Source: Candidatus Magasanikiibacteriota bacterium (GTDB lineage: Bacteria > Patescibacteriota > Patescibacteriia > Magasanikbacterales > UBA922). From it: 64,000 nt of DNA. Location: positions 4,244 through 68,243 of the forward strand of contig JBDGRL010000012.1 of assembly GCA_042218065.1 (NCBI GenBank). Direction: 5' to 3'. Shown here in pieces: positions 3,671-47,927 of the stretch; position 1 is the stretch's first letter, and each line of letters opens with the position of its first letter. The notes under the pieces were generated by a model. The model saw nothing but the letters and a program-made list of their open reading frames with translations. It was not told the DNA's origin and did not search any database. The translations under genes and the position numbers were made by a program.

Positions 3671-5284
3671 TTATATTTCATCCGGCTCGTCAACTTCTGC
3701 TTCAATGTCAGTCCAACTTAAGTATTTTCGCTTTGCGCTAGATTGTAGCTGTTGTAGCTCTTTCGTTTTTAGTAGATACGAGATTAGGATATAAACCATC
3801 AGTCCCAATCCTCCTAAAATTAGACCATAGAAGAAAGTGAGAATCATACCTTCAAAGTTTGTTAATCGATTAAGATAAGGTTCAGCTAGATACATTGTCA
3901 GCCACATGAAGATGCTAGCAGGTGTGATTTTAGCTATGAGCTTGAGGAGTTTGCTCTCGCGTATTGATCCTAATTTGTTTCTCAACAAAAGCCAAAGCAG
4001 TGCGAACTGGCATATCATAGAAATCGAAAACGCCATCGCTAGACCGCTGATCCCAAAGCTGTCCTTTAGCAACAGTGCGGCCACCAAATTTATAATCATT
4101 CCTATTGTTGCAACTACAAATGGACCCCATGTATCCTTCAGTGCAAAAAAGCCTCGGATAAGCACAGGGATCAAACTCTGAGCAAAGAGAGATACTGAAA
4201 AGAAGGCAAGTGCTGATGCGGTCTGCTTTATAGACTGCCGGTCAAATTTACCGGAACCAAAAACCACTTCTACTATCTCGACTCTAAGCAGAATAAAGAG
4301 AATTGTTATTGGTATGATCAAAAATAATACCTTTCGGATGGTGCTGACTAGAAGCTCAGTCATATCTTCCGCTTTTTCTTTTGCTATCAGCTCGGAGAGA
4401 GCAGGAAAAGAGGCAAGAGCAAATGAGTAACCTATAATTCCTACAGGAAAGTACTGTATATTTTTTGCAAAATTAAAGATAGTTAGGCTTCCTGCAGCCA
4501 AGGTTGAGGCGAGGATTGTCATAATCAAAAAATTCATCTGATTTGCTGCCAGACCCAGAGTTCTGGGGATCATCATTTTACCTATTTTTTTCAGATGCGG
4601 ATTGTGCCAGGGAAGAATAAATTTATACTCAAAACCGAGATGAAACAAAGTGGGAACTTGTATTGCTAGATGCAGGAAAGCGCCTAAAATTACACCCCAA
4701 GCAAGACCAATTTCTCCAAAGTGAGGAACGAAAAATAATGCTCCTGCGATAATCCCTAGGTTATACACTACAGGAGTAAAGGAGTAAACTATGAATGATT
4801 TAAATGACTGCAGTACACCGCTGGCGATGCTACTAAGCCCCAACAAGATTGGGCTTAAAAACATCACTCGGGTCATTTTTATTGTTAGATCTAATTTTTT
4901 TCCGCTATAACCCGGAACCACCCACTGCATTAATTGTGGGGTGAAGATGAATAAAATAGTACATATGACAATGAGTGATATTCCCAATATATTCAACACC
5001 CCGTTAGTGACCTTCCAGGCCTCGTCCGTATCATCTTCTAGAAGCTCTTTAAACACCGGGATAAAACCGGCAGATAAAGCTCCGACGACCAGCATATTAT
5101 ATACCAAATCCGGCACACGAAAGGCTGCAAAATAAGCATCCAAAGTATTCCCAGCTCCGAACTGGTGGGCAAAAATTTTATCCCGCGCTAAACCGATAAA
5201 ACGGGAGACTAAAGAAGCTGCCCCTACTGCAATAGCGGCTCCGGTAGTGCTTTTAATTTTACTTTTAATCAGTTTCTTTATCAT
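3671..5284 (-). CDS. murJ: lipid II flippase MurJ (MviN family) polytopic membrane protein
   Basis: 537 aa with about 14 predicted TM segments. The N-terminal region (..FGAGNTLDAYFAAFRVPD..) is typical of MurJ/MviN. Confidence 0.8.
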   Translation of the reverse strand: MIKKLIKSKIKSTTGAAIAVGAASLVSRFIGLARDKIFAHQFGAGNTLDAYFAAFRVPDLVYNMLVVGALSAGFIPVFKELLEDDTDEAWKVTNGVLNILGISLIVICTILFIFTPQLMQWVVPGYSGKKLDLTIKMTRVMFLSPILLGLSSIASGVLQSFKSFIVYSFTPVVYNLGIIAGALFFVPHFGEIGLAWGVILGAFLHLAIQVPTLFHLGFEYKFILPWHNPHLKKIGKMMIPRTLGLAANQMNFLIMTILASTLAAGSLTIFNFAKNIQYFPVGIIGYSFALASFPALSELIAKEKAEDMTELLVSTIRKVLFLIIPITILFILLRVEIVEVVFGSGKFDRQSIKQTASALAFFSVSLFAQSLIPVLIRGFFALKDTWGPFVVATIGMIINLVAALLLKDSFGISGLAMAFSISMICQFALLWLLLRNKLGSIRESKLLKLIAKITPASIFMWLTMYLAEPYLNRLTNFEGMILTFFYGLILGGLGLMVYILISYLLKTKELQQLQSSAKRKYLSWTDIEAEVDEPDEI

Positions 5285-7526: not shown

Positions 7527-9623
7527 ATGAGTAAAAAGTTCAACCTACAATCAGAATTCGATCCAGCTGGAGACCAACCTAAAGCTATTGAAAAGTTGAC
7601 TGAAGGAGTTGATGAGGGATATGACAAACAAACTTTACTTGGAGTCACCGGCTCCGGGAAAACATTTACTATGGCTAACGTGATAGAAAATGTACAGATG
7701 CCGACCTTGGTTATTGCTCACAACAAGACTCTGGCAGCTCAGCTGTGTAATGAGTTTAGAGAGTTTTTTCCCGATAATGCGGTGCAATATTTTGTTAGCT
7801 ATTATGACTATTATCAACCGGAAGCCTATGTGCCCGGCAGTGATACATATATTGAAAAAGAGGCACAGATAAATGATGAGATAGAGAGGCTTCGCCATGC
7901 TACTACTCAGTCTATCTTGACCAGAAAAGATGTGATTATTGTCGCTTCCGTCTCCGCTATCTATGGGTTGGGCTCACCTGACAAGTACGAAAAAACAGTT
8001 TTAAAGCTAAATAAAGGGCAAGAGCTGGATCGAAGGGGCATGATGGAGCATCTGGTGGAGATGCAGTTTGACCGCACCAAAGATAATCTTGAGCGAGGCA
8101 CCTTCAAGGTTCGGGGCAGGGTATTTGAGATTATGCCGATTCACAAGGAAAGGATTTATCGGTTTGAGATCTCAGATCAGATTGAGCGGATAGAGGTGAT
8201 AGATCCTGTGACACGCAATGTAATTGAGGAAGTCGAACAGGCATGGTTTTTTCCGGCGGAACACTATGTAACTTCTGAGAGCAACAGAGAACAGGCTATA
8301 AAACAGATTCAGCAAGAACTTCAGGAAAGATTGGAATATTTTGAAAAGCAGGATAAAATGCTGGAGTATGAACGACTAAAACGTAGAGTAAATCACGATA
8401 TTGAGATGATCAGAGAAGTCGGGTACTGCAATGGAATTGAAAATTATTCACGTTATTTTGATAATCGTGAGCCGGGAGAAGCCCCATTTACATTAATTGA
8501 TTATTTCAAACATACTCATGATAACTTTTTGACTATTATAGATGAATCCCATGTCACTATACCCCAGATTGGCGGCATGTACGCCGGAGACAAGTCAAGA
8601 AAGGAAACGCTGATTGAGCATGGATTCCGGCTGCCCTCGGCAAAAGATAACAGACCATTGAAGTTTTACGAGTTTGAGGAAAGAATAGAGCAGACGATAT
8701 TTACTTCCGCTACACCTGATGATTATGAACTGGAGGAGTCCGGCCAGGTAGTAGAGCAGATTGTTCGTCCGACCGGTTTGGTCGATCCAGAGGTGTTGGT
8801 GCGCCCTATTACACCTATAAGTCAGGATAAGAGCGGAAATATTCATCAAAATGAAGAGCTGTATACACAAGATGAGATTGCAAGCAAAGACAAATCTCAA
8901 GTAGATGATTTAATTGATAGAATTAAAGATCGGATTGAGTCCGACGAGCGAACACTGGTTACGACTTTAACCAAAAAAATGGCAGAAGACCTAACTGATC
9001 ATCTAAAGAAAGAAAATATCTCCGTGAAGTATCTACACAGTGATATCGATACATTGGATCGAGTAGATATTATTCATGATCTACGCAAGGGAAACATCGA
9101 CGTTATTGTGGGAGTTAATCTACTGCGTGAAGGGTTGGATATACCCGAGGTCTCTCTGGTAGCTATTTTAGATGCTGACAAAGAAGGGTTCTTGCGCAGT
9201 GAGACCACCTTGGTTCAAACTATGGGTAGAGCTGCCAGAAACGTCAATGGACAGGTAGTGCTTTATGCTGATGAGCTCACCGGATCACTTGAAAACGCCA
9301 TTGAAGAGACACAAAGAAGAAGAAAAATTCAGCTGGAGTACAATGAAAAACATGACATTACTCCTGAAACTATTGAAAAGAGAATCAAGAATATTTTAGA
9401 TGAGTTCGGTATTATTAGAAGAAACACATCGGGCAAGAAGGTACCTGATTCAGAAGAAACCCTGGACCTAGAGCTGAAGGGGGACGATAGGGATCTGGAG
9501 GAGATTATAAAAGAGAAAGAAGAAAAAATGGAGCAGGCGGCCGAAGATCTGGACTTTGAGACTGCTGCAGTACTTCGAGATGAGATTAAGGAACTCAGGA
9601 TGAGATTAAAAGCTGAAAGTTAA
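7527..9623 (+). CDS. uvrB: excinuclease ABC subunit B (UvrB)
   Basis: 698 aa with Walker A LLGVTGSGKTF, helicase motifs and a C-terminal UVR domain (ETAAVLRDEIKELRMRL). Confidence 0.95.
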   Translation: MSKKFNLQSEFDPAGDQPKAIEKLTEGVDEGYDKQTLLGVTGSGKTFTMANVIENVQMPTLVIAHNKTLAAQLCNEFREFFPDNAVQYFVSYYDYYQPEAYVPGSDTYIEKEAQINDEIERLRHATTQSILTRKDVIIVASVSAIYGLGSPDKYEKTVLKLNKGQELDRRGMMEHLVEMQFDRTKDNLERGTFKVRGRVFEIMPIHKERIYRFEISDQIERIEVIDPVTRNVIEEVEQAWFFPAEHYVTSESNREQAIKQIQQELQERLEYFEKQDKMLEYERLKRRVNHDIEMIREVGYCNGIENYSRYFDNREPGEAPFTLIDYFKHTHDNFLTIIDESHVTIPQIGGMYAGDKSRKETLIEHGFRLPSAKDNRPLKFYEFEERIEQTIFTSATPDDYELEESGQVVEQIVRPTGLVDPEVLVRPITPISQDKSGNIHQNEELYTQDEIASKDKSQVDDLIDRIKDRIESDERTLVTTLTKKMAEDLTDHLKKENISVKYLHSDIDTLDRVDIIHDLRKGNIDVIVGVNLLREGLDIPEVSLVAILDADKEGFLRSETTLVQTMGRAARNVNGQVVLYADELTGSLENAIEETQRRRKIQLEYNEKHDITPETIEKRIKNILDEFGIIRRNTSGKKVPDSEETLDLELKGDDRDLEEIIKEKEEKMEQAAEDLDFETAAVLRDEIKELRMRLKAES

Positions 9624-9718: not shown

Positions 9719-11131
9719 ATGACATATAATCCTACTAAAAATAGAGAAGCATCGGAACCGAACCATAATCAGACTAATTTAGAAAGATTTAAAGAAATTG
9801 CTGAGGAGAACCGTCATGAAGCCCACGAGAAGGCCCCTATTTTGGGGGAAGATTATCTACAGGCTCTCAATGAAGGATTTGAGTCGCAAGCAGATAGGGA
9901 GAGATTGGAACAACATATTGTAGTAAAATTGGGCAAGTGGTTTAAAAAAAGGGCCGAGGAGATGGAAAAAGATAATGAGGTGCCATTGTATTTTAGTCGT
10001 TTGTTAGAATCTGATCACCTTAAAAGATTTTTAGAAGAATCAGAAGATTATGAGAAGGGTGTGGATGCTGATGCTGCTTCAGAACTTTTTTCTCATTGTG
10101 TAGACTTGTTTTCGGGCTGTGGATATGATGATTCTATGGATGGTATACCTAATGATTTGTTAGAAGCTTTATTGCGAGCAAATAAGCAATATAAAACTGA
10201 GTTAAAAAAATATTTTGATGTGGGGGTGGATCAAGAAGCTAAAGATGATTTTCGTAACTTTTTCATCTCTCAAATTACAAAATTATCAGATAAGATAAAT
10301 TTAGCCGAACCTGTTCTACAAAAAATTAGAGAACGTCTTGAAGATATTATTTTTGATTTAGTGGGGGGATTAAGTGGAAGAAATGCCAGAGGGGCATCAT
10401 TTCGTTACTATCCAGAAGAGGATAGGGTAAAATTAACTCTAGATCAATTTAAGGGAGAGCACGACCCCCAAGAACAATGTGATTTAATTAAAAAAATAGC
10501 TGTACACGAAACCCTACATGCCGTGAGCTGTTTTTCTGCCAATAAAGAGAAGACAGACATAGAAAGTTTGGGTTCATGCAAGCTGGGTTTATTGTTTGAG
10601 AGTGATTGGCCGTCCGGAGGTCATAATCTGAATGAGGGGGTTACTGACTATCTTGCTATTCAATTTTTAGGACATGAAAGTAAAAGCATAAGATATTCAC
10701 CCGGTGATTATAAGGTTGGAATATATCAACCACAGATAGCAGCTGTTGAGGCAATTTTAGATGACATCCCTGAGGAAATTTTATTTGGTGCTTATTTTGA
10801 ATCTTATCAGAAATCGCAAGAAAATACAGCCGTAAAAACTAAAGAACTGTTAAGTCTGATGGAAGAAAAATATGGAGATAAAGATTTCTTCTTTGTGTTA
10901 GATGAATCTTTGAGGTATTTGGATCCGCAACATTTTAACCAAAAGAAGCAAGCAAAGAAACTTATAGCAGCTCTAAAAAAGGAAATTCAAAGGAATCAAG
11001 GAGTTTCCGATATACTAGACTCCCATAAGCTCAATAAAGATATGATAGCCAAAGTTCTAGAAAAACATGTTTCATCTCAGGGTGAAGGGTCTGTGAAGAG
11101 TTGGTTTTACAGTGCTGAGAATATAGACTAA
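9719..11131 (+). CDS. hypothetical cytoplasmic protein with gluzincin-like zinc-metallopeptidase signature (HETLH ... NEGVTD)
   Basis: 470 aa with no signal peptide. HExxH (VHETLHAVS) is followed about 40 aa later by NEGVTDY, resembling the thermolysin-type HExxH + NExxSD arrangement. Confidence 0.4.
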   Translation: MTYNPTKNREASEPNHNQTNLERFKEIAEENRHEAHEKAPILGEDYLQALNEGFESQADRERLEQHIVVKLGKWFKKRAEEMEKDNEVPLYFSRLLESDHLKRFLEESEDYEKGVDADAASELFSHCVDLFSGCGYDDSMDGIPNDLLEALLRANKQYKTELKKYFDVGVDQEAKDDFRNFFISQITKLSDKINLAEPVLQKIRERLEDIIFDLVGGLSGRNARGASFRYYPEEDRVKLTLDQFKGEHDPQEQCDLIKKIAVHETLHAVSCFSANKEKTDIESLGSCKLGLLFESDWPSGGHNLNEGVTDYLAIQFLGHESKSIRYSPGDYKVGIYQPQIAAVEAILDDIPEEILFGAYFESYQKSQENTAVKTKELLSLMEEKYGDKDFFFVLDESLRYLDPQHFNQKKQAKKLIAALKKEIQRNQGVSDILDSHKLNKDMIAKVLEKHVSSQGEGSVKSWFYSAENID

Positions 11132-21233: not shown

Positions 21234-23917
21234 AGGTTATGGATTTTTCAGAGACAGAAAAATTACCACTTCAGAGGCAAGATGGACAGGTGTACTTTCA
21301 GGAGGGTAAGAATGCTTGGTATTTCGGCCAGAAATTAGATCATAATGAGATTCAATATCGTAGGTATAAGGGTTTAGTAGATAAATTACAGATCGGTTTA
21401 TTGACATTGTTTGCTTTATTTTGCTTCGTTTTATTTTATTTGTTTTTACCAGAATCTTCTTTATTATTCTCTTTTAAGTTTTGGTTGAACCCCGATCCTC
21501 TTCTGGCTTGGTTTTGGTTGGGGGTATTAAGTATTTTATATGTTTGGGCTAGAGTTCTGATTTTAAACCATAAGGACTTAAAGGTATTTGATTACCAGGA
21601 GAAAGATTTTAAGCAGAAAAATCCCTCTGGATCTGATTTATCAAAATCTGGAGCTGAAAATTTATCTAAAAAGAGCAATAAAGATTTAACTAAATATTTC
21701 ACAAAAGACTGTAGGAAAATTATAGATAGAGCTTATAGACTAGCTGATAAGAATAATATAAAAGAGGTAAGTCCAGAAGTTATTTTTTATTCACTTTTAT
21801 TTAATGAAAGAATTTCTAGTATTTTTGTAAGATTGAATTTACCAGTAGATCAGATTAAAGAGAAGTTTTCTGAAATTATTTCGGGAAGTACTCAATTAGA
21901 ACCTAAACTAAAAGACGGTTTTTATCAGACAATTTTTCTTGCATATAAGATAGCACGAAAAGAGAAACAAGAACATATTGATGTTACAGAACTTATCTTA
22001 GCTACAGTGCAAAATTCAAATCAGCTTCAAGAATTTCTTTATGATTTAAAAGTAGATATGGAAAAGTTACAGAAAGTAGTAGAATGGGTTCGTATTAGAT
22101 CTAGATTAAGAAAAAGGTATAGAAGGAGACAAAAAGAGGCTGCTTACAGAAGTGAAGCAGGTATTGATAGAGCAATGACCTCAGTAGCTACCCCTTATTT
22201 AAACAAATTTAGCCAAGATCTTACATTTTTGGCTCAGAAATCTCAACTAGAATCCTGTGTGGCTAGAAAAAAAGAGATTGATGAGATCTTTCGAGTAATA
22301 GAAACAGGAAGACAAAGTGTATTGTTAACTGGAGAAATAGGTGTTGGGAAAAGCACTTTAGTTAATGGTATAGCTCAAAGAATGATAGGCAAAAATATTC
22401 CTAAAGAGTTGGAAGAAAAAAGGCTGGTAAAGCTTTCAATTTCTAAATTACTAGCGGGTACTAGTGTAAGCGGTGCTCAACAAAGGTTAATAAATATAAT
22501 GCAAGAAGTAGCAAAAGCCGGGAATGTCGTGCTATTTATAGATGGCATAGATAAATTGATGGGAGCTCAGACGGATAAAGGTTCCAGTTTAGATGTAGCA
22601 GGAACTTTGGCTGAATACCTAAGTTCTGGTAGATTTTTGACTATCGCAGTTACCACAAATAAAGGGTACAATAGACAGATAGTCAACACTCAGCTGGATA
22701 CGATTTTCTCTCGGGTAAACATAGAAGAGATGGATTTGGACCAAACTATAAAGGTTTTGGAGTCGAAAGCAGGCCTAATTGAACACCAACAAAATATATT
22801 TTTCTCTTATAAGGGACTTGAGCAGTCTGCGGAATTAGCAGAAAAATTTATTCAGCAAAAAAATCTACCAGAGAGTGCTATTGAAATAATGACTCAAGCA
22901 GCTAGCTATAGTAGAAGCCAGAAAGGTGAGAAGTCTTTGGTACTAGAAGAAGATGTATCAGAGGTGGTGAGTGATAAGACCGGCATTCCTACTACTTCGT
23001 TGACGGAAGAGGAGTCAGAGAAACTAATGAAACTGGAAGAAAAAATGCATGAAAGAATTATTGGTCAAGATGAGGCGGTGGAAATGGTATCAAACGCGCT
23101 TCGTAGAGCCAGGACAGAGGTTCGATCTGAGGACAAGCCAATCTCTACTTTTCTCTTCTTGGGACCAACCGGGGTGGGTAAGACTGAGCTAGCAAAAACA
23201 ATTTCTTCGACTTATTTTGGTGGAGAAGAGAAAATGATCCGCATAGATATGAGTGAATACCAAGACAAACAATCTGTTTATAGATTAATAGGTCAACCTA
23301 ATGAGCAAGGTACCGGCCTTCTTACTCAGCAAGTCCGCGAAAATCCATTTTCGTTGTTGTTGTTAGATGAGTTGGAAAAATCAAGTCAGGATGTACAAAA
23401 TCTATTCTTACAAGCCTTTGATGACGGGAAGTTGACTGATAGCGTAGGTAGAGAGGTTGATTTTACCAACACCATCATTATTGCTACCTCTAATGCAGGT
23501 ACTGAGTATGTGCAGAAAGAACTAGAAAAAGGAAAAGAACTAGAAGATATAAAAGAAAAACTCATACGAGGAAAGCTGCAAGAATATTATCCCCCTGAGT
23601 TTTTAAACAGATTTGATGGAATAGTGCTGTTTAAATCTTTGAAAAAAGAAGAAGTAAAGCAAATTGCTGATCTGATGCTGGAGCGAGTACGAGAAGATAT
23701 GGAAGATAAGGGTATAAAACTAGAAATTACCGAAGGTGCACTTGAGTCTCTAGTAGAAGAAGGCTATGACCCTCAGTTTGGAGCTAGACCGATGCAGAGA
23801 GCTATTCAGGATAATATAGAAAATAAACTAGCAGAACTAGTACTAGAGGATGATTTAGATCGTAGAGATGAGGTAACTATTAAAAAAGATTTTGAGGTAG
23901 ATGTAAAAAGAAAATAA
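21230..23917 (+). CDS. ClpA/ClpC-like double AAA+ ATPase with N-terminal transmembrane anchor
   Basis: 895 aa. Two TM helices in the first about 110 aa, a Clp-N-like segment, D1 Walker A GEIGVGKST, D2 Walker A GPTGVGKTELAK, and a sensor region. Confidence 0.7.
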   Translation: MKVMDFSETEKLPLQRQDGQVYFQEGKNAWYFGQKLDHNEIQYRRYKGLVDKLQIGLLTLFALFCFVLFYLFLPESSLLFSFKFWLNPDPLLAWFWLGVLSILYVWARVLILNHKDLKVFDYQEKDFKQKNPSGSDLSKSGAENLSKKSNKDLTKYFTKDCRKIIDRAYRLADKNNIKEVSPEVIFYSLLFNERISSIFVRLNLPVDQIKEKFSEIISGSTQLEPKLKDGFYQTIFLAYKIARKEKQEHIDVTELILATVQNSNQLQEFLYDLKVDMEKLQKVVEWVRIRSRLRKRYRRRQKEAAYRSEAGIDRAMTSVATPYLNKFSQDLTFLAQKSQLESCVARKKEIDEIFRVIETGRQSVLLTGEIGVGKSTLVNGIAQRMIGKNIPKELEEKRLVKLSISKLLAGTSVSGAQQRLINIMQEVAKAGNVVLFIDGIDKLMGAQTDKGSSLDVAGTLAEYLSSGRFLTIAVTTNKGYNRQIVNTQLDTIFSRVNIEEMDLDQTIKVLESKAGLIEHQQNIFFSYKGLEQSAELAEKFIQQKNLPESAIEIMTQAASYSRSQKGEKSLVLEEDVSEVVSDKTGIPTTSLTEEESEKLMKLEEKMHERIIGQDEAVEMVSNALRRARTEVRSEDKPISTFLFLGPTGVGKTELAKTISSTYFGGEEKMIRIDMSEYQDKQSVYRLIGQPNEQGTGLLTQQVRENPFSLLLLDELEKSSQDVQNLFLQAFDDGKLTDSVGREVDFTNTIIIATSNAGTEYVQKELEKGKELEDIKEKLIRGKLQEYYPPEFLNRFDGIVLFKSLKKEEVKQIADLMLERVREDMEDKGIKLEITEGALESLVEEGYDPQFGARPMQRAIQDNIENKLAELVLEDDLDRRDEVTIKKDFEVDVKRK

Positions 23918-41740: not shown

Positions 41741-42476
41741 TACACATCAACCTAAAAGTTACGATGAATTCGATAAACGCGAATGGTGGAATGAAGCTGA
41801 AAAAGAAATATTTAAAAAAGTTACCGCCGAAAAATTACCGGAATCTGTTCCAGATGCTGTAGTCTGGATCGAAGGGGATGCAAGGGATAGAGTAGATAAG
41901 ACTATGGAAGTATTGGAATATTATAACCATAAACCAAAGCTAATTTTATCCGGTGGGCTAGAAGGAAACCCATATCGACCAGACTCTGATTTGCGACCCG
42001 ACGGTGGAAATATCCCTTCCTGGGAGATAAAAGAAGAATTCCTCGAGCGAGGAGTAGATAAGGAAAATATAATTTTAGAAGATGAATCTCGCAACGGTTT
42101 AGAGCAAGCAATCAATGATGTCGAGATTGCAAAGAAACGAGACTATGACAGCTTAGTCTTGGTTGCTTCAACTTGGCATCAGCCGAGGTTATTTTTGACT
42201 TTTGTCAATCAGCTACATGAACAAGATGCTTTGGATATTGAGCTGATTAACCAACCGGAGACCAGCTATCCACTAGATAGAAAAATTCCTGGCCGAGGAA
42301 AAGATACATTGGAGATGCTACAAGAGGATCTCTGGAAAATAACTGAATACAATGAAAATGGAACTGTTGCTAAAGCTGAAGTTGAGCTGGAGTATTTGGA
42401 AAGGTTTGAGAAAGAGTATGAAGAAGTCAGTGAAAAGATTGAAGAAATTGTCGAAGAAATTGAGTTAAAAAAGTAG
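41733..42476 (+). CDS. YdcF/ElyC-like DUF218 family protein
   Basis: 247 aa. ..LILSGG...EDESRNGLEQA...LVLVASTWHQPR.. resembles the DUF218 core (E-S-R-N-T-x-E-N pattern). Confidence 0.45.
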   Translation: MTNTHQPKSYDEFDKREWWNEAEKEIFKKVTAEKLPESVPDAVVWIEGDARDRVDKTMEVLEYYNHKPKLILSGGLEGNPYRPDSDLRPDGGNIPSWEIKEEFLERGVDKENIILEDESRNGLEQAINDVEIAKKRDYDSLVLVASTWHQPRLFLTFVNQLHEQDALDIELINQPETSYPLDRKIPGRGKDTLEMLQEDLWKITEYNENGTVAKAEVELEYLERFEKEYEEVSEKIEEIVEEIELKK

Positions 42477-42477
42477 T

Positions 42478-44010
42478 ATGTCACCCCCAAACCGAGGAGA
42501 TAATAATAGAGATCCTGGAAAATTAGGCGATGAAAATTCTGTAAATAACCCAGAACAAGAACCTGGAGAAGAGTTTTTAGACCCTAATCAAAAACCTGAA
42601 AGATATTATGGTGAGCCTGGTAGTTTGTCTGAAAAGTTAGAGTTAATAGATAAAGTTATTCTAAGAAGAGATGCTGATTTGTTAGTTGAGGAAGACTTAA
42701 TGACTGATGATCAATTGATGGAGTATTTAGTATTGGTTGAGGGTGAGCAGTCAGAGCAGATAGTTCGTATGATTAGAAGTTTTAACGTTTTAGTTGAAGA
42801 CTTTACTTCGCAAGATGAAGATCCTTTTTCAGTTGAGGGAATTAGAAAAATAGCTAATAGAACTGGCTTGGATCGTCCTAGTTTTTTTACCAAGATAGCC
42901 AAAGCATATTTTCACATGGGCCAATTTGATCCCTCTTTTTTTCTTACAAGTGAAAGATTGACAAAAGCGGTACTTGATCTAAAAGAGGGAGAAATTTCTC
43001 CGATAGAAAAAGCTGATGCGGTTGAAACCTTAGGTTCTATTCAGGATAAATTTGGAGATCAAGCCAGTGCTTATAAACTAAAAGAAAGCGGATTACAAGT
43101 TTTAAATCATTCAGATATGCAAGATGTAAATCAAGCATGGTTAAAAGCAAAGTGTCTCCACGGAATGGCTGACTATCAAATAGATGATGAGAGAGTTCCT
43201 AATGAAAAGATAGAAGATAGATTTGAAGAGGTAGAACAGATCCTCCGTGATATTCAAGATGAAGCTCATGTAGCTAGAACAAAACTAGATATAGCAAAGT
43301 TTCATATTCAAAATGAGGATTATAAAAAAGCTCACCAATATGCAAGCCAGGCTTATGAAGAATTACACGAAACTGGTTATATTAGGAAATTGCCGGACGC
43401 AGCTGAGATTATGAGGGATAGTCAAGAACAACTTAGTTCGGATGCACAAATTGTAAGAAGAATAGAACAAATCCAAACGCAAGACAGAGAAGCAATACAA
43501 CCTAAAAGAGAAGATTTAGTTGAACTTAAAGAAACAGAAGAAAAGTTAAAACCAGCTAGAGTTTTATTAAAACTCCCAAGCTCTTCTGGAGAAACTGTGT
43601 ATTTTGTTAAAAAAGATTCTGATGGAAGTTATGAGCTGCCAGAAATTGAAGGTTTGGAGAGTGGGGAGGGTTTTTCTAAGTTTGAAATGTTAAAAAATTT
43701 AGAAAGAATGCTAGCAGAGAATTTATCTGAGTCAGAAGATGCAGAATTAGAAAAAATTACATCTAATCATCCAGTCATTCCTACAGGTGAGGAAAAAAGA
43801 AGTGAAGATCGAGAGGTGCAATTATATAAAATAGATCTAACATCAGGACCACAAGATAAAATACCAGAGGTGAAACCTGGTGAGCTTGAAAAAAAAGAAA
43901 AATTTTGCTATGTTGCTATGAAATATGAAGAATTAAAGAGTAATCAAGAAAATTTTGATTCTGAATCGCAAAAATTGATTGAAGGAGAAATTGAATATCA
44001 AGGAGAGTAA
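42478..44010 (+). CDS. hypothetical acidic protein
   Basis: 510 aa, highly acidic and helical. No recognisable domain. Confidence 0.45.
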   Translation: MSPPNRGDNNRDPGKLGDENSVNNPEQEPGEEFLDPNQKPERYYGEPGSLSEKLELIDKVILRRDADLLVEEDLMTDDQLMEYLVLVEGEQSEQIVRMIRSFNVLVEDFTSQDEDPFSVEGIRKIANRTGLDRPSFFTKIAKAYFHMGQFDPSFFLTSERLTKAVLDLKEGEISPIEKADAVETLGSIQDKFGDQASAYKLKESGLQVLNHSDMQDVNQAWLKAKCLHGMADYQIDDERVPNEKIEDRFEEVEQILRDIQDEAHVARTKLDIAKFHIQNEDYKKAHQYASQAYEELHETGYIRKLPDAAEIMRDSQEQLSSDAQIVRRIEQIQTQDREAIQPKREDLVELKETEEKLKPARVLLKLPSSSGETVYFVKKDSDGSYELPEIEGLESGEGFSKFEMLKNLERMLAENLSESEDAELEKITSNHPVIPTGEEKRSEDREVQLYKIDLTSGPQDKIPEVKPGELEKKEKFCYVAMKYEELKSNQENFDSESQKLIEGEIEYQGE

Positions 44011-44176
44011 AAATATTACGACTAAATCGAAACAACTGCAGGCATAGCTAGCTGGATTTTTTTAATTTAGCTAGGTGTGCCTGCCTCGCTGAGGAGGACA
44101 CCCGCCAAAACTTCCCGCTGGGAATAAGTGGCGTCGTTATAGTCCGTAAACCTTTCCGCGAATGCGGAGGTTTGTG

Positions 44177-44791
44177 ATGAGTAACGAGCAACGGAGAGTC
44201 GTCTCGCTGGACGAAGTCCGCGAGACGCTCGCCGACGAATTTGGGGAAAAGGTCTTGATTGACCTGATTCCACAGATCGACGAGTCCCAGTGGGTCCTCG
44301 ACCTCTGGGCCGAGCTCGATGGGGCACAACCTCATGATGAGTGGGTCGCTGGTCGTCGAGATCGGCGATTCTTCGATGTGGGGGTTCGTAACCCCTATCT
44401 CGATCCCCCTCAAGGAGCGCCATGGGGGCAACTCGAGATCAGGGAGGAGCCGACGATTCAGCCGGACCAGTCCGGCAACCGGATCGTCGGGTACGTCCTC
44501 ATCGAGTCGCTTCGGCTCGAATACGGATCGGCCGTGCGTGTCACGGCCAGCTCCGTCTCGAACGATGAGGCGGAGATCTGCGTCGACGACCAGCCGGCGA
44601 TCGAGTCGGAGGACGAGGTCCACGGGATGTTTCGCACAAACGGCCCCCGAATCAACGGGGACGTGTTGGTGATCGAACGCCCGGTCGAATCCGCTGAGGG
44701 CGATGGGTGGGGAACCCCCAATGCCCTCATCAAGCAGGCCGAAGATCAAAAAGTCGGTCAAGGTCTGCGTCAAGCGGGCCTCGTCGAGTAA
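44177..44791 (+). CDS. hypothetical 204-aa acidic protein encoded within a about 60% GC foreign-looking block
   Basis: GGAGG at 44166-44170, then 6 nt, then ATG at 44177. There is a strong G/C third-codon-position bias (gag gtc tcg ctg gac ...) unlike all neighbouring genes. The track ORF 44162..44791 uses an upstream ATG without an RBS. The overlapping antisense ORFs are typical high-GC artefacts. Confidence 0.55.
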   Translation: MSNEQRRVVSLDEVRETLADEFGEKVLIDLIPQIDESQWVLDLWAELDGAQPHDEWVAGRRDRRFFDVGVRNPYLDPPQGAPWGQLEIREEPTIQPDQSGNRIVGYVLIESLRLEYGSAVRVTASSVSNDEAEICVDDQPAIESEDEVHGMFRTNGPRINGDVLVIERPVESAEGDGWGTPNALIKQAEDQKVGQGLRQAGLVE

Positions 44792-44938
44792 TTGAACACC
44801 AACACCCCGAGTCGCGAACCCACGGACTTCACGGCCCGTGCTGAAGCGGCTCGGGGTTGAGCCCCAGGAAAGGTAAGCCTGAGAATGGCGGAGCCGAATT
44901 TCCGAGAGGAGGGAGCCTAGCGTGTTAACGTGAGGCTA

Positions 44939-44963
44939 GCAGGTTCGAATCCTGCCCGGGGCA
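44939..44963 (+). other. tRNA/tmRNA-like 3' fragment: T-stem-loop GCAGG-TTCGAAT-CCTGC plus acceptor 3' strand CCGGGGC and discriminator A; no complete cloverleaf found
   Basis: Canonical GGTTCGAATCC T-loop context followed by a 7-nt acceptor strand and then TTTT. I could not find a complementary 5' acceptor strand, D arm or anticodon arm upstream. Confidence 0.45.
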
Positions 44964-45001
44964 TTTTGCACGATTGTTCGATCTTTGTAGAATTTGGGGG
45001 A

Positions 45002-45057
45002 GCCTAGAACAGTTTGTTCTAGGCAATACAAAAGCTCACCAAATCTGGTGAGTTTTT
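45002..45057 (+). terminator. two consecutive hairpins: GCCTAGAAC-agttt-GTTCTAGGC (9 bp) and CTCACC-aaatct-GGTGAG + TTTTT (terminator)
   Basis: Perfect stems at 45002-45024 and 45035-45052 with a T-run at 45053-45057. Confidence 0.55.
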
Positions 45058-45091
45058 GTATTTTTTGCTATAGTTTGAAAAAATAATTTTT

Positions 45092-46312
45092 GTGAAGGAA
45101 AAATTAGCTCGCAACCCAAAACTACTATTCTGGATTAATGCTTTGAAAAATGTGAAAGTTTTAAGCATTGTAATTTCTTTATTTTATCTTCACCGTGGTT
45201 TGAGTTTATCACAGATTTTTTATTTATCGATCGTCTGGGCGGTGACAAATTTACTATTTGAAATCCCTTCTAGCTACATGGCCGATAAGTGGGGCAGGAA
45301 GAAAACTTTATTTGTCGGTGCAGTCTCTTTTTTATTCTACTGGATTGTTTTGTTGGTTGGTGCTAGCTTTTGGGTATTTGCTTTTGCTATTTTTTTGTAT
45401 GCCTTTTCTTTTGCTTGTTTTTCTGGAACAGATGATGCTTTACTTTATGATACCAAAAAAGAGTTAGGCAAAGAGGCAGAAACTTTAGGTTCATTTGGTA
45501 AATATTACTCAGCCAAAAGGATTTTCAAAATTGCTGCTCCAATTTTAGGAGCAGTTATTGCTAAGGATTTACTTGAATGGCAATTTCAGCTAATCATCAG
45601 TATAGATATATTTGCTTCTCTGTTGGCTGTTATTATGACATTGTTTTTAGTTGAGCCCACTCACTACAAGGAAGTAAAACAAGAAGAGGCGGATATATTG
45701 TTAGATGCCTGGAATTTACTCAGCTCGAATAAAAATCTACTCAAAGCCATCTTAAATAAAACTCTGATTTTTATAGCTGGTTTTATAACTTTCCGCTATT
45801 ATCAAAAATTATTTGTCGATCTTGGTATGGCAGTAATAGCGATCGGTATCGGTTGGTCTATGTTTCAGGTAATAATGTTTTGGGGTAATCAAAAAATTAC
45901 TGAAGTCTTCAAAAATTATCCTTTGCCTCAAAGGATAGATTTCCTAAACTATATTTTTGCTGGTGTAATGAGTAGTTTTGTCGCTATTTATTTTATCGCT
46001 TCGGAGAGGTTTTATCTTCTATTTATTTTGTTTGTAGTGGCTCATATAGCCGAGACGCTTAGATATACTTTATTCTCCGAGATGTTCAACAAAAACTTCA
46101 AATCTTTCAATCGTTCGACAGCTTTATCTTTGTCAAATTTTCTTAAAAGTGTGCTAGATATTCCGTTGATATTTTTTGCCGGCTGGTTAGTTAGCCTCGA
46201 TATTATCTACCCTTATGTATTTGCTGCTATTTTAGCTGTTGTAGTTAGTTTGGTTGTTAGTCTCCACGGGTTAGGTTTATATGTTCAGAAAAAGCCAGTT
46301 AAAGCTTCCTAA
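45092..46312 (+). CDS. MFS transporter
   Basis: 406 aa with about 12 TM segments and MFS motif A MADKWGRKKTLFVGA between TM2 and TM3. GTG start, no clear RBS. Confidence 0.7.
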   Translation: MKEKLARNPKLLFWINALKNVKVLSIVISLFYLHRGLSLSQIFYLSIVWAVTNLLFEIPSSYMADKWGRKKTLFVGAVSFLFYWIVLLVGASFWVFAFAIFLYAFSFACFSGTDDALLYDTKKELGKEAETLGSFGKYYSAKRIFKIAAPILGAVIAKDLLEWQFQLIISIDIFASLLAVIMTLFLVEPTHYKEVKQEEADILLDAWNLLSSNKNLLKAILNKTLIFIAGFITFRYYQKLFVDLGMAVIAIGIGWSMFQVIMFWGNQKITEVFKNYPLPQRIDFLNYIFAGVMSSFVAIYFIASERFYLLFILFVVAHIAETLRYTLFSEMFNKNFKSFNRSTALSLSNFLKSVLDIPLIFFAGWLVSLDIIYPYVFAAILAVVVSLVVSLHGLGLYVQKKPVKAS

Positions 46313-46350
46313 TTTTTTTCAAAGTTTAAATATAATAATATGCCAAAAAA

Positions 46351-46995
46351 ATGAATACCAGAAGTACACAAAAAACAAATGTAAACAAAAAATTTAGCCC
46401 TGGTCACTACGGATTTGTATTGAAGCCAGATTCCAAAATAAGAGAAAAAGTTGAGAAAATCCAGCAGGAATTTTGTCCGAATGTAGAATTTAAGGCTGGA
46501 GCAGATGGGGATATTCACCTTACTTTATATCATGCTCCAATAAGTACTGTTTCCAAGCCAAAAATAGATAAAATTATCAAAACCGTCGAAGCTACAGGAA
46601 TATTAGATGAAAGATTACAACTTAGAGAGTTAGAAATTTATGGAGAAACATTTCTATTTTGGAGTGTCTCAACTATTCCAGAAGTGTTGACTGAAGCTCA
46701 TAAAAAAGCTTTAAATTTGGCTAACTTTTTACAGAAAGAGGCTTCTGAAAGTAAAGAAAATTTAGCAGGTTTAAGCGAGAAAGAACAAGAAAATATCAAA
46801 AAATATAATCATCCGCTGGTAAAAGATTTATACAAGCCTCATATTACTATTGCTTATAACTCGACAGGAATAGAAGTTGAATCTAAAAAAATTGAAAATT
46901 TCTCTCATTCTGCTTCTATTGACATTGAAGAAATAAGTTTTGCTCGTATAGGTGATAATGGTCGGGTAGAAGAAAATTTACTTACAATTTCTTAA
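46351..46995 (+). CDS. 2H phosphoesterase superfamily protein (LigT-like, two HxTx motifs)
   Basis: 214 aa with DIHLTLYHAP and KPHITIAYNS about 108 aa apart, the hallmark tandem H-x-T/S-x motifs of 2H phosphoesterases. Confidence 0.6.
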   Translation: MNTRSTQKTNVNKKFSPGHYGFVLKPDSKIREKVEKIQQEFCPNVEFKAGADGDIHLTLYHAPISTVSKPKIDKIIKTVEATGILDERLQLRELEIYGETFLFWSVSTIPEVLTEAHKKALNLANFLQKEASESKENLAGLSEKEQENIKKYNHPLVKDLYKPHITIAYNSTGIEVESKKIENFSHSASIDIEEISFARIGDNGRVEENLLTIS

Positions 46996-46997
46996 TT

Positions 46998-47927
46998 ATG
47001 AAAAACACATCTATACTGGAGAAAAATCAAGAAGAGCTAGAAAAAATTATTCAAATATTAGAAGATGCAATTGGCCATAATGCACGAGTTGCCGGAATTA
47101 TTCAAATAGGAAGTTATGCTAATGGTGAGTCGGTACCAGGACTCTCGGATATAGATACAAGAGTGTATGTCGAATCTGATGAAGTATATATCTGGAATGT
47201 AGCTGGACACAAAACCAGCGAAGAAATTTATCAAGAGAATAAACTTGATGATTTTGTTGATGAATATGGAGAAAAGCCGATAGAAGATTTAACGTGGAAT
47301 AATTTTAATCTTCCTATGTGGGACCAACTAGAAGAAGAGTTTGGAGTCCAAATCGAGTTTGGACTTACTGATAAGAGGTATGCTGATTATGCATTGCAAA
47401 ATATTAAGAGTTCACCTACTAATGAGCATTCTTTCTTGATGAAACGAAGTATTATTTATGATCCGGATAATTTTTTATCACAATGGAAACAGAAGCTTTC
47501 CGGAGAAGTTTTTCCTACAATGGTAGAGTTTTACAAGGACCAATACCTCAGCGGTCTGTCAGATAAACTTTATAATAGCACAGAAATAACTGAAGGTGAC
47601 TTAGAAGAAATTGAGAGAAGAAATAAAATCCAATGGATCAAACGAGCAATTCGGCACATTAGAGAAGCTGTTACAACTAAAGTTTATGCCGCTACTGGAG
47701 AAATAGTTCATAAAAAAGACGATATCCTTGCTTTTTATAAAAAACACTTACCTGAAAGATACGATTTTGTAAAAAAATTATATCGCTGGAAGACAGACTA
47801 CGAAACAAGAAAAGAAATGATCAAAGATTGTCTAGAAAATCCTAAAAAATATTCTGAGAAGTTTGAAGAGTTGACTCCAAAGTTGGAGGAAGTTGTTAAA
47901 GAAGTCAGTAATTTGCGACTTAATTAG
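46998..47927 (+). CDS. Pol-beta superfamily nucleotidyltransferase domain protein with about 230-aa C-terminal helical extension (ANT/Lnu-like architecture)
   Basis: 309 aa. IGSYANGESVPGLSDIDTRVYVE is a GS-x9-13-DxD nucleotidyltransferase motif. It starts 3 nt after the 2H phosphoesterase stop. Confidence 0.6.
   Translation: MKNTSILEKNQEELEKIIQILEDAIGHNARVAGIIQIGSYANGESVPGLSDIDTRVYVESDEVYIWNVAGHKTSEEIYQENKLDDFVDEYGEKPIEDLTWNNFNLPMWDQLEEEFGVQIEFGLTDKRYADYALQNIKSSPTNEHSFLMKRSIIYDPDNFLSQWKQKLSGEVFPTMVEFYKDQYLSGLSDKLYNSTEITEGDLEEIERRNKIQWIKRAIRHIREAVTTKVYAATGEIVHKKDDILAFYKKHLPERYDFVKKLYRWKTDYETRKEMIKDCLENPKKYSEKFEELTPKLEEVVKEVSNLRLN

Follow-up and report, generated by a model that had tools for sequence, protein, structure and literature searches.

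Does a sequence that reads exactly like the 3' end of a transfer RNA (tRNA), at the downstream edge of an anomalously GC-rich block, mark a tRNA gene, a transfer-messenger RNA (tmRNA) or the end of an imported island? The question is raised by a 64-kb segment (hereafter the window; positions 4,244 to 68,243 of contig JBDGRL010000012.1) of a Candidatus Magasanikbacteria metagenome-assembled genome (MAG). The original prediction, made from the sequence alone, had described GCAGG-TTCGAAT-CCTGC followed by CCGGGGC and A at 44939-44963 as a tRNA T-arm plus acceptor 3' strand. It proposed for this motif an attachment-site (att) remnant of an integrative element co-transferred with the block or, alternatively, a degenerate tmRNA 3' domain. 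The motif is present exactly as described. It is a tRNA-derived fragment, neither a tRNA nor a tmRNA gene, and it lies in the 3' untranslated region (UTR) of a native gene. All window features given below are on the plus strand unless stated otherwise.

The element (44939..44963) comprises a T-stem strand (GCAGG), a T-loop (TTCGAAT), the second T-stem strand (CCTGC), the acceptor 3' strand (CCGGGGC) and the discriminator base A. Sequence comparison aligned it with tRNA-Arg positions 49-73, with identity at 25/25 bases over the T-arm, acceptor 3' strand and discriminator. An exact scan using one genome per species retrieved the same 25-mer from at least 119 bacterial genome stretches. Among the matches listed, the genes that hold it were typed by ARAGORN as tRNA-Arg with anticodon CCT or TCT, and their hosts include Gammaproteobacteria, Actinomycetes, Saccharibacteria and a Parcubacteria genome, thus including the Candidate Phyla Radiation (CPR). 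Because of this identity with the tRNA-Arg 3' end in at least 119 stretches, the 25-mer is certainly tRNA-derived as judged from its sequence, which narrows the predicted 3' part of a tRNA to that of a tRNA-Arg (CCT/TCT). The fragment ends without CCA, which is encoded by nearly all the real genes and remnants that we compared. Its similarity to tRNA-Arg genes in blastn alignments spans 25-28 nt only and ends at the T-stem. A nhmmer profile built from 32 tRNA-Arg sequences gave 29.6 bits at the fragment, with identity of 25/25 from 44939 onwards and ~10/21 upstream. This sharp drop at 44938/44939 fits a recombination junction better than uniform decay.

No full cloverleaf can be built upstream of the motif, in agreement with the original prediction. 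ARAGORN, tmRNA mode included, called no tRNA or tmRNA gene in the whole 64 kb, and the reading as a fragment therefore stands. The Rfam search yielded no match at gathering thresholds and no family at the fragment site, tRNA included, down to an expectation value (E) of 10, which supports a remnant over a gene. A tRNA-Arg covariance model built for this work gave 28 bits over 44877-44963, its sole match in the 64 kb at E<=1, compared with 48 bits for a real tRNA-Pro in the same model. In this alignment, two acceptor pairs and the D-stem pairs are broken, 25 nt are inserted and the anticodon loop has lost 3 nt, so that the complete cloverleaf of a tRNA gene is missing. The heptamer GCCCCAG (44861-44867) could pair with CCGGGGC as a 5' acceptor strand, and we rejected it as the sign of a tRNA-like gene because 92% of shuffles offer such a 7-mer, as expected by chance.

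The tmRNA alternative did not hold either. tmRNAs carry a G3.U70 alanine identity pair in their acceptor stem. At this site CCGGGGC implies C3-G70, a tRNA-Arg-like acceptor without G3.U70, and both the ARAGORN tmRNA mode and the Rfam tmRNA families came back empty. The resemblance to the tRNA-like domain of tmRNA consists of a T-arm and acceptor 3' strand placed after a long structured RNA. The differences are an acceptor of tRNA-Arg type rather than the G.U-bearing alanine type, the lack of CCA, and an upstream open reading frame (ORF) that codes for a 209-residue enzyme-like protein, not a tag peptide.

We then asked whether the GC-rich block is foreign. The GC step noted in the original prediction is real: the block (44085..44965), composed of a 5' UTR, an ORF and a structured 3' UTR, has 58-66% GC, compared with ~35% in its flanks and ~36% in the genome. 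The ORF (44162..44791, 209 residues) is annotated in the MAG from a start at 44177 (204 residues, locus tag ABEJ24_01465) and displays coding periodicity, with GC contents of 0.71/0.40/0.72 at the first, second and third codon positions, respectively. An independent Logan contig (run SRR28304479) reproduces 42027-44968 without mismatch, and the left junction of the block is therefore real.

A first, word-indexed protein search with the ORF found only itself; homologues were found by exhaustive HMMER search, and a profile search collected 45 proteins of ~160-230 residues. All members of this family with a named source belong to Patescibacteria, and no Pfam domain was found in family members. 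A metagenome scan with a 5-sequence family alignment yielded two loci. In all the loci that we read, the family gene is part of a dTDP (deoxythymidine diphosphate)-sugar cluster, with genes for an RfbB-type dehydratase, FdtA, RmlD, NTP_transferase, PEGA, EPSP synthase and S41 peptidase proteins as neighbours. The gene order of the window is that of its relatives, with RfbB/RmlD/DUF218 upstream and GT2, NTP_transferase, PEGA, EPSP synthase and S41 peptidase downstream. In two loci (L127 and L128; L numbers designate the loci compared), the gene next to the homologue codes for a hexose dehydratase (PF03559).

The ORF is GC-rich in all ten loci considered (10/10; 55-68% GC, with a third-position GC content (GC3) of 0.61-0.86), compared with 36-50% GC in the remainder of each locus. 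These ORFs are found at 44162-44791 in the window, 10001-10579 in L121, 103-696 in L122, 6001-6588 in L123, 6001-6582 in L125, 6001-6573 in L128, 6001-6648 in L129, 803-1468 in L130, 776-1384 in L131 and 632-1210 in L134. Because the anomaly holds across members with 27-45% protein identity, recent transfer is no explanation for it. The Patescibacteria-only distribution of the source-named members, the synteny and the GC-richness in 10/10 loci show that the block is native, an old resident gene of the Patescibacteria dTDP-sugar cluster rather than imported DNA. It thus has the atypical composition of a horizontally transferred GC-rich island, yet not the phylogenetic distribution or the gene context of one.

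A phage or plasmid origin of the block was rejected, since a protein-profile scan found no member of the ORF family in viral contigs and a distant blastn search with the block DNA found in phage and plasmid records only a 31-nt, chance-level match to two Ralstonia phages (E = 7e-3). A haloarchaeal or other high-GC donor had been suspected from the acidity of the protein and was rejected as well, as the 25-mer is that of a bacterial tRNA-Arg and the family occurs only in Patescibacteria. We also considered that the block might have been inserted into a tRNA gene, the 5' half of which would lie at its left edge. The sequence TAGCT-AGCTGGAT (44045-44057) there is D-arm-like. The nhmmer tRNA-Arg profile does not rank it, and equal partial matches are present at 7729, 1581, 22561 and 63168; it was treated as a chance resemblance. 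An imperfect 21-nt inverted repeat, GCAGGCATAGCTAGCTGGATT / AATTTAGCTAGGTGTGCCTGC, spans 44038..44084 at the same edge.

Integrases usually target tRNA genes, and the event leaves a displaced fragment as its mark; an island of this kind, as defined by Islander, combines a regenerated tRNA, an integrase and the displaced fragment (PMC4383910). The window provides a displaced 3' tRNA fragment in the same orientation (44939-44963, plus strand). It holds no regenerated intact tRNA at another island end, the 44.9 kb upstream included, and no integrase or foreign cargo between repeats. No tRNA 5' half was found in the 64 kb, and a Pfam analysis detected no recombinase, integrase or transposase among the window ORFs. 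The window genes code for UvrA/B/C, MraZ/W, ClpB, DnaB, RecR, L21, HIT, NUDIX and sugar-related proteins, and the 45 kb upstream of the fragment consist of syntenic core genes, including those for LepA, UvrABC, MraZ/W, ClpB, DnaB and RecR. Since an intact tRNA, an integrase and a further repeat copy are all missing from the 64 kb, and since syntenic core genes lie upstream, the fragment site is not the end of an island. The likeness to Islander-type fragments (attR/attL; PMC4383910) lies in the same-sense tRNA-Arg 3' part devoid of its 5' part; the difference from Islander-type islands (PMC4383910) lies in the absence of a regenerated tRNA, an integrase and an island, with core, syntenic DNA upstream. 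Other tRNA-Arg remnants mostly extend from the anticodon loop past CCA into the flank, different from the present fragment, which consists of positions 49-73 only, without CCA or shared flank. The proposal of an att remnant co-transferred with the block thus fails, the block being native and syntenic and the window having no intact tRNA, 5' half, integrase or second copy. Of that proposal, an old or orphan att-type scar survives as a possible, and indeed our preferred, origin.

It is established that the fragment derives from tRNA-Arg, that no gene is present and that the block is native. We infer that the fragment is an orphan recombination scar, a secondary att-like site or a short insertion between the copies of a 10-mer repeat, which now resides in the 3' UTR of a native gene. 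We hold this reading with about even confidence. A past recombination event would have left a piece of tRNA-Arg in the intergenic region downstream of the native gene. The source may have been a displaced tRNA piece or a secondary att-type site of a tyrosine-integrase element or, alternatively, a short stretch of DNA that was duplicated or inserted, with the GGGAGCCTAG repeat as its mark. The fragment came separately from the GC-rich block, which is a long-standing member of the Patescibacteria dTDP-sugar cluster. If the fragment is transcribed today, it would form the final, stably folding module of the GC-rich 3' UTR, upstream of the terminator. Displaced tRNA-Arg fragments without a 5' half are common elsewhere; among the matches listed, they occur in L006, L022, L038, L060, L063, L079, L082, L095, L102 and L118, and a short form extending from the T-arm to the end is present in three actinomycete loci (L030, L067 and L080).

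The direct repeat was confirmed with one correction: the left copy of the 10-mer GGGAGCCTAG lies at 44911..44920 as predicted, and the right copy at 44998..45007, one position downstream of where it had been placed. The two copies overlap the 5' strands of two hairpins, respectively hairpin A (44914-44937) and the perfect hairpin described below. There are no further copies of GGGAGCCTAG in the 64 kb. A 10-mer bracketing the 25-mer arises in 19/5000 flank shuffles, and any 10-mer direct repeat within 150 nt arises in 94/2000 shuffles of 44800-45100. The repeat is real and only modestly beyond chance, the shuffle test being post hoc. Considered as the product of an insertion with target-site duplication, the 10-bp repeat flanks a 77-nt insert that has no terminal inverted repeats by eye. 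The search for a second copy was negative: neither the 10-mer pair nor the fragment or insert recurs in the 64-kb window.

A hint of a second copy came from the Logan assembly. The contig SRR28304479_281218 (locus L120) ends at 44968, 5 nt past the fragment, which is the end of a 30-mer made of the 25-mer and TTTTG. A k=31 assembly graph would branch at this point if the sample contained another copy of 30 nt or more, and the contig end thus hints indirectly at such a copy, or at a population variant, in the sample. The occurrence elsewhere in the MAG of a tRNA-Arg with the same 3' end followed by TTTTGCACG would favour a duplication or an att-type origin.

Several points weigh against the orphan-scar reading. 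The argument from the contig end is indirect, and low coverage could equally have ended the contig. The defining partners of an island endpoint are missing, since no intact tRNA, 5' half, integrase or transposase, or second fragment copy was found in the 64 kb, and exact scans of viral contigs found neither of the fragment junctions. Most known tRNA-Arg remnants keep the anticodon loop through CCA and the flank, unlike this one. Both ends of the fragment fall on boundaries of structural modules, a placement that would be in keeping with a tRNA-like module under selection as well. Lastly, the conservation of 25/25 bases in a genome of 36% GC implies that the event was recent or that the piece is under selection.

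The fold of the 3' UTR bears on this last possibility. The region upstream of the fragment is highly structured, as predicted, and the 3' UTR alone folds with z = -4.4. A long hairpin (44805..44857), identified both by an inverted-repeat search and in the folds, begins 14 nt past the stop codon, with a 12-bp outer stem (CCCCGAGTCGC.../...GCGGCTCGGGG) and an inner CACGG/CCGTG stem. The CCCCGAG and CTCGGGG strands singled out in the original prediction do pair in this outer stem, at 44805 and 44850 rather than at 44806 and 44860, and GGGGttgagCCCC is located at 44853-44865. Minimum free energy and centroid folds both predict a tRNA-like multi-branch domain over 44861..44963, with a closing stem, GCCCC(A)GG / CC-GGGGC, stacked on the T-arm. 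In the predicted fold, this domain encloses three non-tRNA hairpins, including hairpin A, and is devoid of an anticodon arm. In a fold of the whole transcript (44085-45070), the closing stem pairs with probabilities of 0.88-1.0 and the T-stem with probabilities of 0.91-0.93, and the predicted domain is strongly favoured by thermodynamics.

Downstream of the fragment, a perfect hairpin (45002..45024; GCCTAGAACA gtt TGTTCTAGGC) overlaps the 10-mer as originally described; its fully complementary arms (45002-45011/45015-45024; 100%, 3-nt gap) are 10 nt long, one more than the 9 bp initially proposed. It is followed by a strong intrinsic terminator (45025..45068) with a 17-bp stem (45025-45062), preceded by an A-tract and followed by a T-tract. 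This terminator closes the transcription unit of the GC-rich gene and, given its 5' A-tract and 3' T-tract, is likely bidirectional.

These structures make a functional tRNA-like 3' module the most serious competitor of the scar, albeit a doubtful one. An exapted piece of tRNA-Arg would mimic a T-arm and acceptor, with GCCCC(A)GG as its closing strand, and would recruit RNase P on its 5' side and RNase Z or exonucleases as well as the CCA-adding enzyme at A44963, thereby defining or stabilizing the mRNA 3' end. The robust predicted folding of the domain in the whole transcript argues for such a role, as do the perfect conservation of a tRNA identity that spans exactly one structural module (positions 49-73), the unusual structuring of the whole transcript (z = -8.2, and -5.4 relative to synonymous-codon permutation; see below) and the long 3' RNA of L121 and L130, with its eight compensatory pairs and acceptor-like first hairpin. 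However, this is a single sequence, no relative having been found with the same element for covariation, and the 5' closing strand is within chance expectation. The 3' UTR of the window cannot be aligned with those of L121/L130, the main-group homologues lack such an element, and the acceptor-like hairpins of L121 and L130 score E values of about 0.5-1 only. To our knowledge, a tRNA-like 3' module is without precedent in bacterial mRNAs, which also counts against this explanation. In MALAT1/mascRNA and in the t-elements of plant mitochondria, tRNA enzymes process a tRNA-like structure at an RNA 3' end, and further tRNA-like RNA structures (TLS) are known in plant viruses and in the bacterial YrlA Y RNAs, which have a tRNA-like domain. 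What the predicted domain shares with all of these is an acceptor-like stem stacked on a canonical T-arm at a transcript 3' end, without anticodon function; it differs in that it belongs to a bacterial mRNA, has no Rfam match down to E = 10 and owes the support for its fold to thermodynamics.

The fragment might also be what is left of a complete tRNA-Arg gene once present downstream of the GC-rich gene, the 5' two-thirds of which would have diverged or been overwritten. The end-to-end alignment of the tRNA-Arg model over 44877-44963 (28 bits), the extension by nhmmer of a weak similarity (~10/21) into the anticodon/variable region (44918-44938) and the recurrence of GCCCCAG (44861) as the 5' acceptor strand in one real tRNA-Arg, that of L035, are in line with this scenario. 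We nevertheless consider it improbable, as uniform decay cannot yield 25/25 identity beside near-random sequence, the span is 87-103 nt rather than 74, the D and acceptor stems are broken and the anticodon loop is absent, and no tRNA is found beside the gene in any homologous locus. Arrival of the fragment as an att remnant together with a foreign high-GC block would account for the sharp GC step and for the position of the fragment at the 3' edge of the block, and it is compatible with the acidic protein and with the first search that found only the ORF itself. It has become very improbable in view of the Patescibacteria-only homologues in the same dTDP-sugar neighbourhood, GC-rich in 10/10 loci including hosts of 39-50% GC, of the lack of relatives in viral contigs and of relevant phage or plasmid matches, and of the other homologous loci, which are without the tRNA piece. 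An AT-rich upstream 510-residue protein is equally acidic, which makes acidity a property of the host. Hardly credible, finally, is a tmRNA 3' domain that has degenerated, or a chimeric assembly in which a shared tRNA k-mer made the join. The highly structured upstream region and the break of the Logan contig at 44968 might point that way, but no tmRNA was detected by ARAGORN or Rfam, the acceptor is without G3.U70, an independent assembly reproduces the left junction, and the gene order on either side matches that of the relatives, so that the join is correct at the gene scale.

An orphan tRNA fragment is in itself ordinary, such pieces being left wherever integrases have used tRNA genes, and the present one mainly cautions annotators against calling a tRNA, a tmRNA or an island at this site. 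What had looked like a foreign GC-rich block is corrected to a vertically kept gene family, the members of which have diverged deeply and yet keep 55-68% GC (GC3 reaching 0.86) in the AT-rich genomes of Patescibacteria. More unusual than the fragment is this abutting family, through its lasting GC-richness and its folding. The ORF RNA folds with z = -8.2 relative to dinucleotide shuffles; the values for 11 further gene segments of 630 nt from the window lie between +1.1 and -2.4. Relative to synonymous-codon permutation, z is -5.4 for the window and -5.7 for L121 versus only -1.3 to -2.4 for main-group homologues, and the mRNAs of the window and L121 are thus far more base-paired than permutation of synonymous codons allows. 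Such a sustained anomaly of composition and structure needs selection or biased conversion as an explanation.

An antisense frame, codon-aligned with the gene, is stop-free across it in 6/9 loci (44051-44935 on the minus strand in the window, 295 codons). An overlapping antisense gene was rejected as the cause of the high GC content, the frame being broken in 3/9 loci (L128, L130 and L131). The open frame is not telling, because a GC3-rich sense frame alone would give one.

The nearest relatives of the window ORF are those of L121 (45% protein identity) and L130 (40%). Both loci harbour a GC-rich RNA region of ~340 nt between the ORF and the terminator (L121 10580-10935 and L130 ~1400-1765). 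The two regions are 82% identical, with 8 compensatory pair changes, and have no Rfam match; they may represent an undescribed structured RNA. No homology of the window 3' UTR to this RNA was found. The first hairpin of the 3' RNA in both loci has a tRNA-Arg acceptor-stem sequence with U8 and A73: just past the stop codon, L121 has GCTCCGG-T...CCGGAGC-A (10605-10644) and L130 has GCCCTGG-T...CCAGGGC-A (1412-1445), both like the tRNA-Arg acceptor stem. They are the only non-tRNA matches of the tRNA-Arg model in 79 kb. A hairpin after the stop codon of L122 (~726-770) reads GCCCGGC...GCCGGGC-A. These acceptor-like hairpins of L121, L130 and L122 could be a coincidence or a theme common with the tRNA-like end of the window transcript.

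On a bolder hypothesis, which we consider unlikely, the T-arm/acceptor module would be functional within a novel type of bacterial transcript, a persistently GC-rich, hyper-base-paired mRNA that comes from a sugar-pathway gene specific to the CPR and ends in a tRNA mimic. Recognition of the mimic by tRNA-processing enzymes would set the 3' end, stability or localization of the mRNA, and L121 and L130 would carry a different, also conserved 3' RNA that starts with an acceptor-like hairpin. If the tRNA-like end and the 3' RNAs of the relatives proved functional, this would be the first bacterial mRNA with a tRNA mimic at its 3' end.

The main-group loci are compact, each with a promoter, a 5' hairpin, the ORF and a terminator, and no tRNA-like piece was found in them. 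Upstream of the ORF in L123 (5950-6000), L125, L129 and L134 (540-631), we observed a conserved terminator, a TTGACA promoter and a 5' UTR hairpin (AGAAGCCAA..GGCTTCA), and in the same four loci a conserved GGCCGCGGCCTGATCC motif directly follows the stop codon.

The protein encoded by the window ORF has no Pfam or PDB sequence match. Its AlphaFold (AF2) model is confident, with a predicted local distance difference test (pLDDT) score of 86, and the best PDB fold matches are EvaA, a dTDP-sugar 2,3-dehydratase, and Nudix sugar-nucleotide hydrolases. The model may thus have a Nudix-like or sugar 2,3-dehydratase-like fold; the matches are weak (for EvaA, probability 0.99, template modelling (TM) score 0.39 and E 7e-3) and fit the gene neighbourhood. 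In addition to being the best structural matches, the two enzyme types share with the ORF protein a dTDP-sugar gene context. The ORF protein is half the size of EvaA, and the TM score of 0.39 denotes a weak match.

A promoter-like site, TTTGCA-17-TAGAAT (44965..44993), with 9/12 matches in a consensus scan, which in itself does not speak for function, is located in the AT-rich spacer directly 3' of the fragment. It would start a transcript of ~68 nt containing the perfect hairpin and the terminator (45000-45068), which could be a small RNA or serve as leader to the MFS gene that starts at 45092. The segment 45092-47927, which separates the GC-rich gene from the first GT2 gene, holds three genes, for an MFS transporter, a LigT/2'-5' RNA ligase-like protein and a protein with a nucleotidyltransferase domain. 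The GC-rich homologue in L121 is immediately followed by the GT2 gene, and 45092-47927 may be a lineage-specific insertion beside the tRNA fragment.

Finally, a 16-mer, TAATTGAACACCAACA, is common to the stop-codon region of the GC-rich gene (44789-44804) and to a ClpB-like ORF (22776-22791), in which a D-arm-like 21-mer is also present 200 nt upstream, at 22561-22581. Both are in frame in the ClpB-like coding sequence, and the shared 16-mer and the D-arm-like match are probably due to chance.

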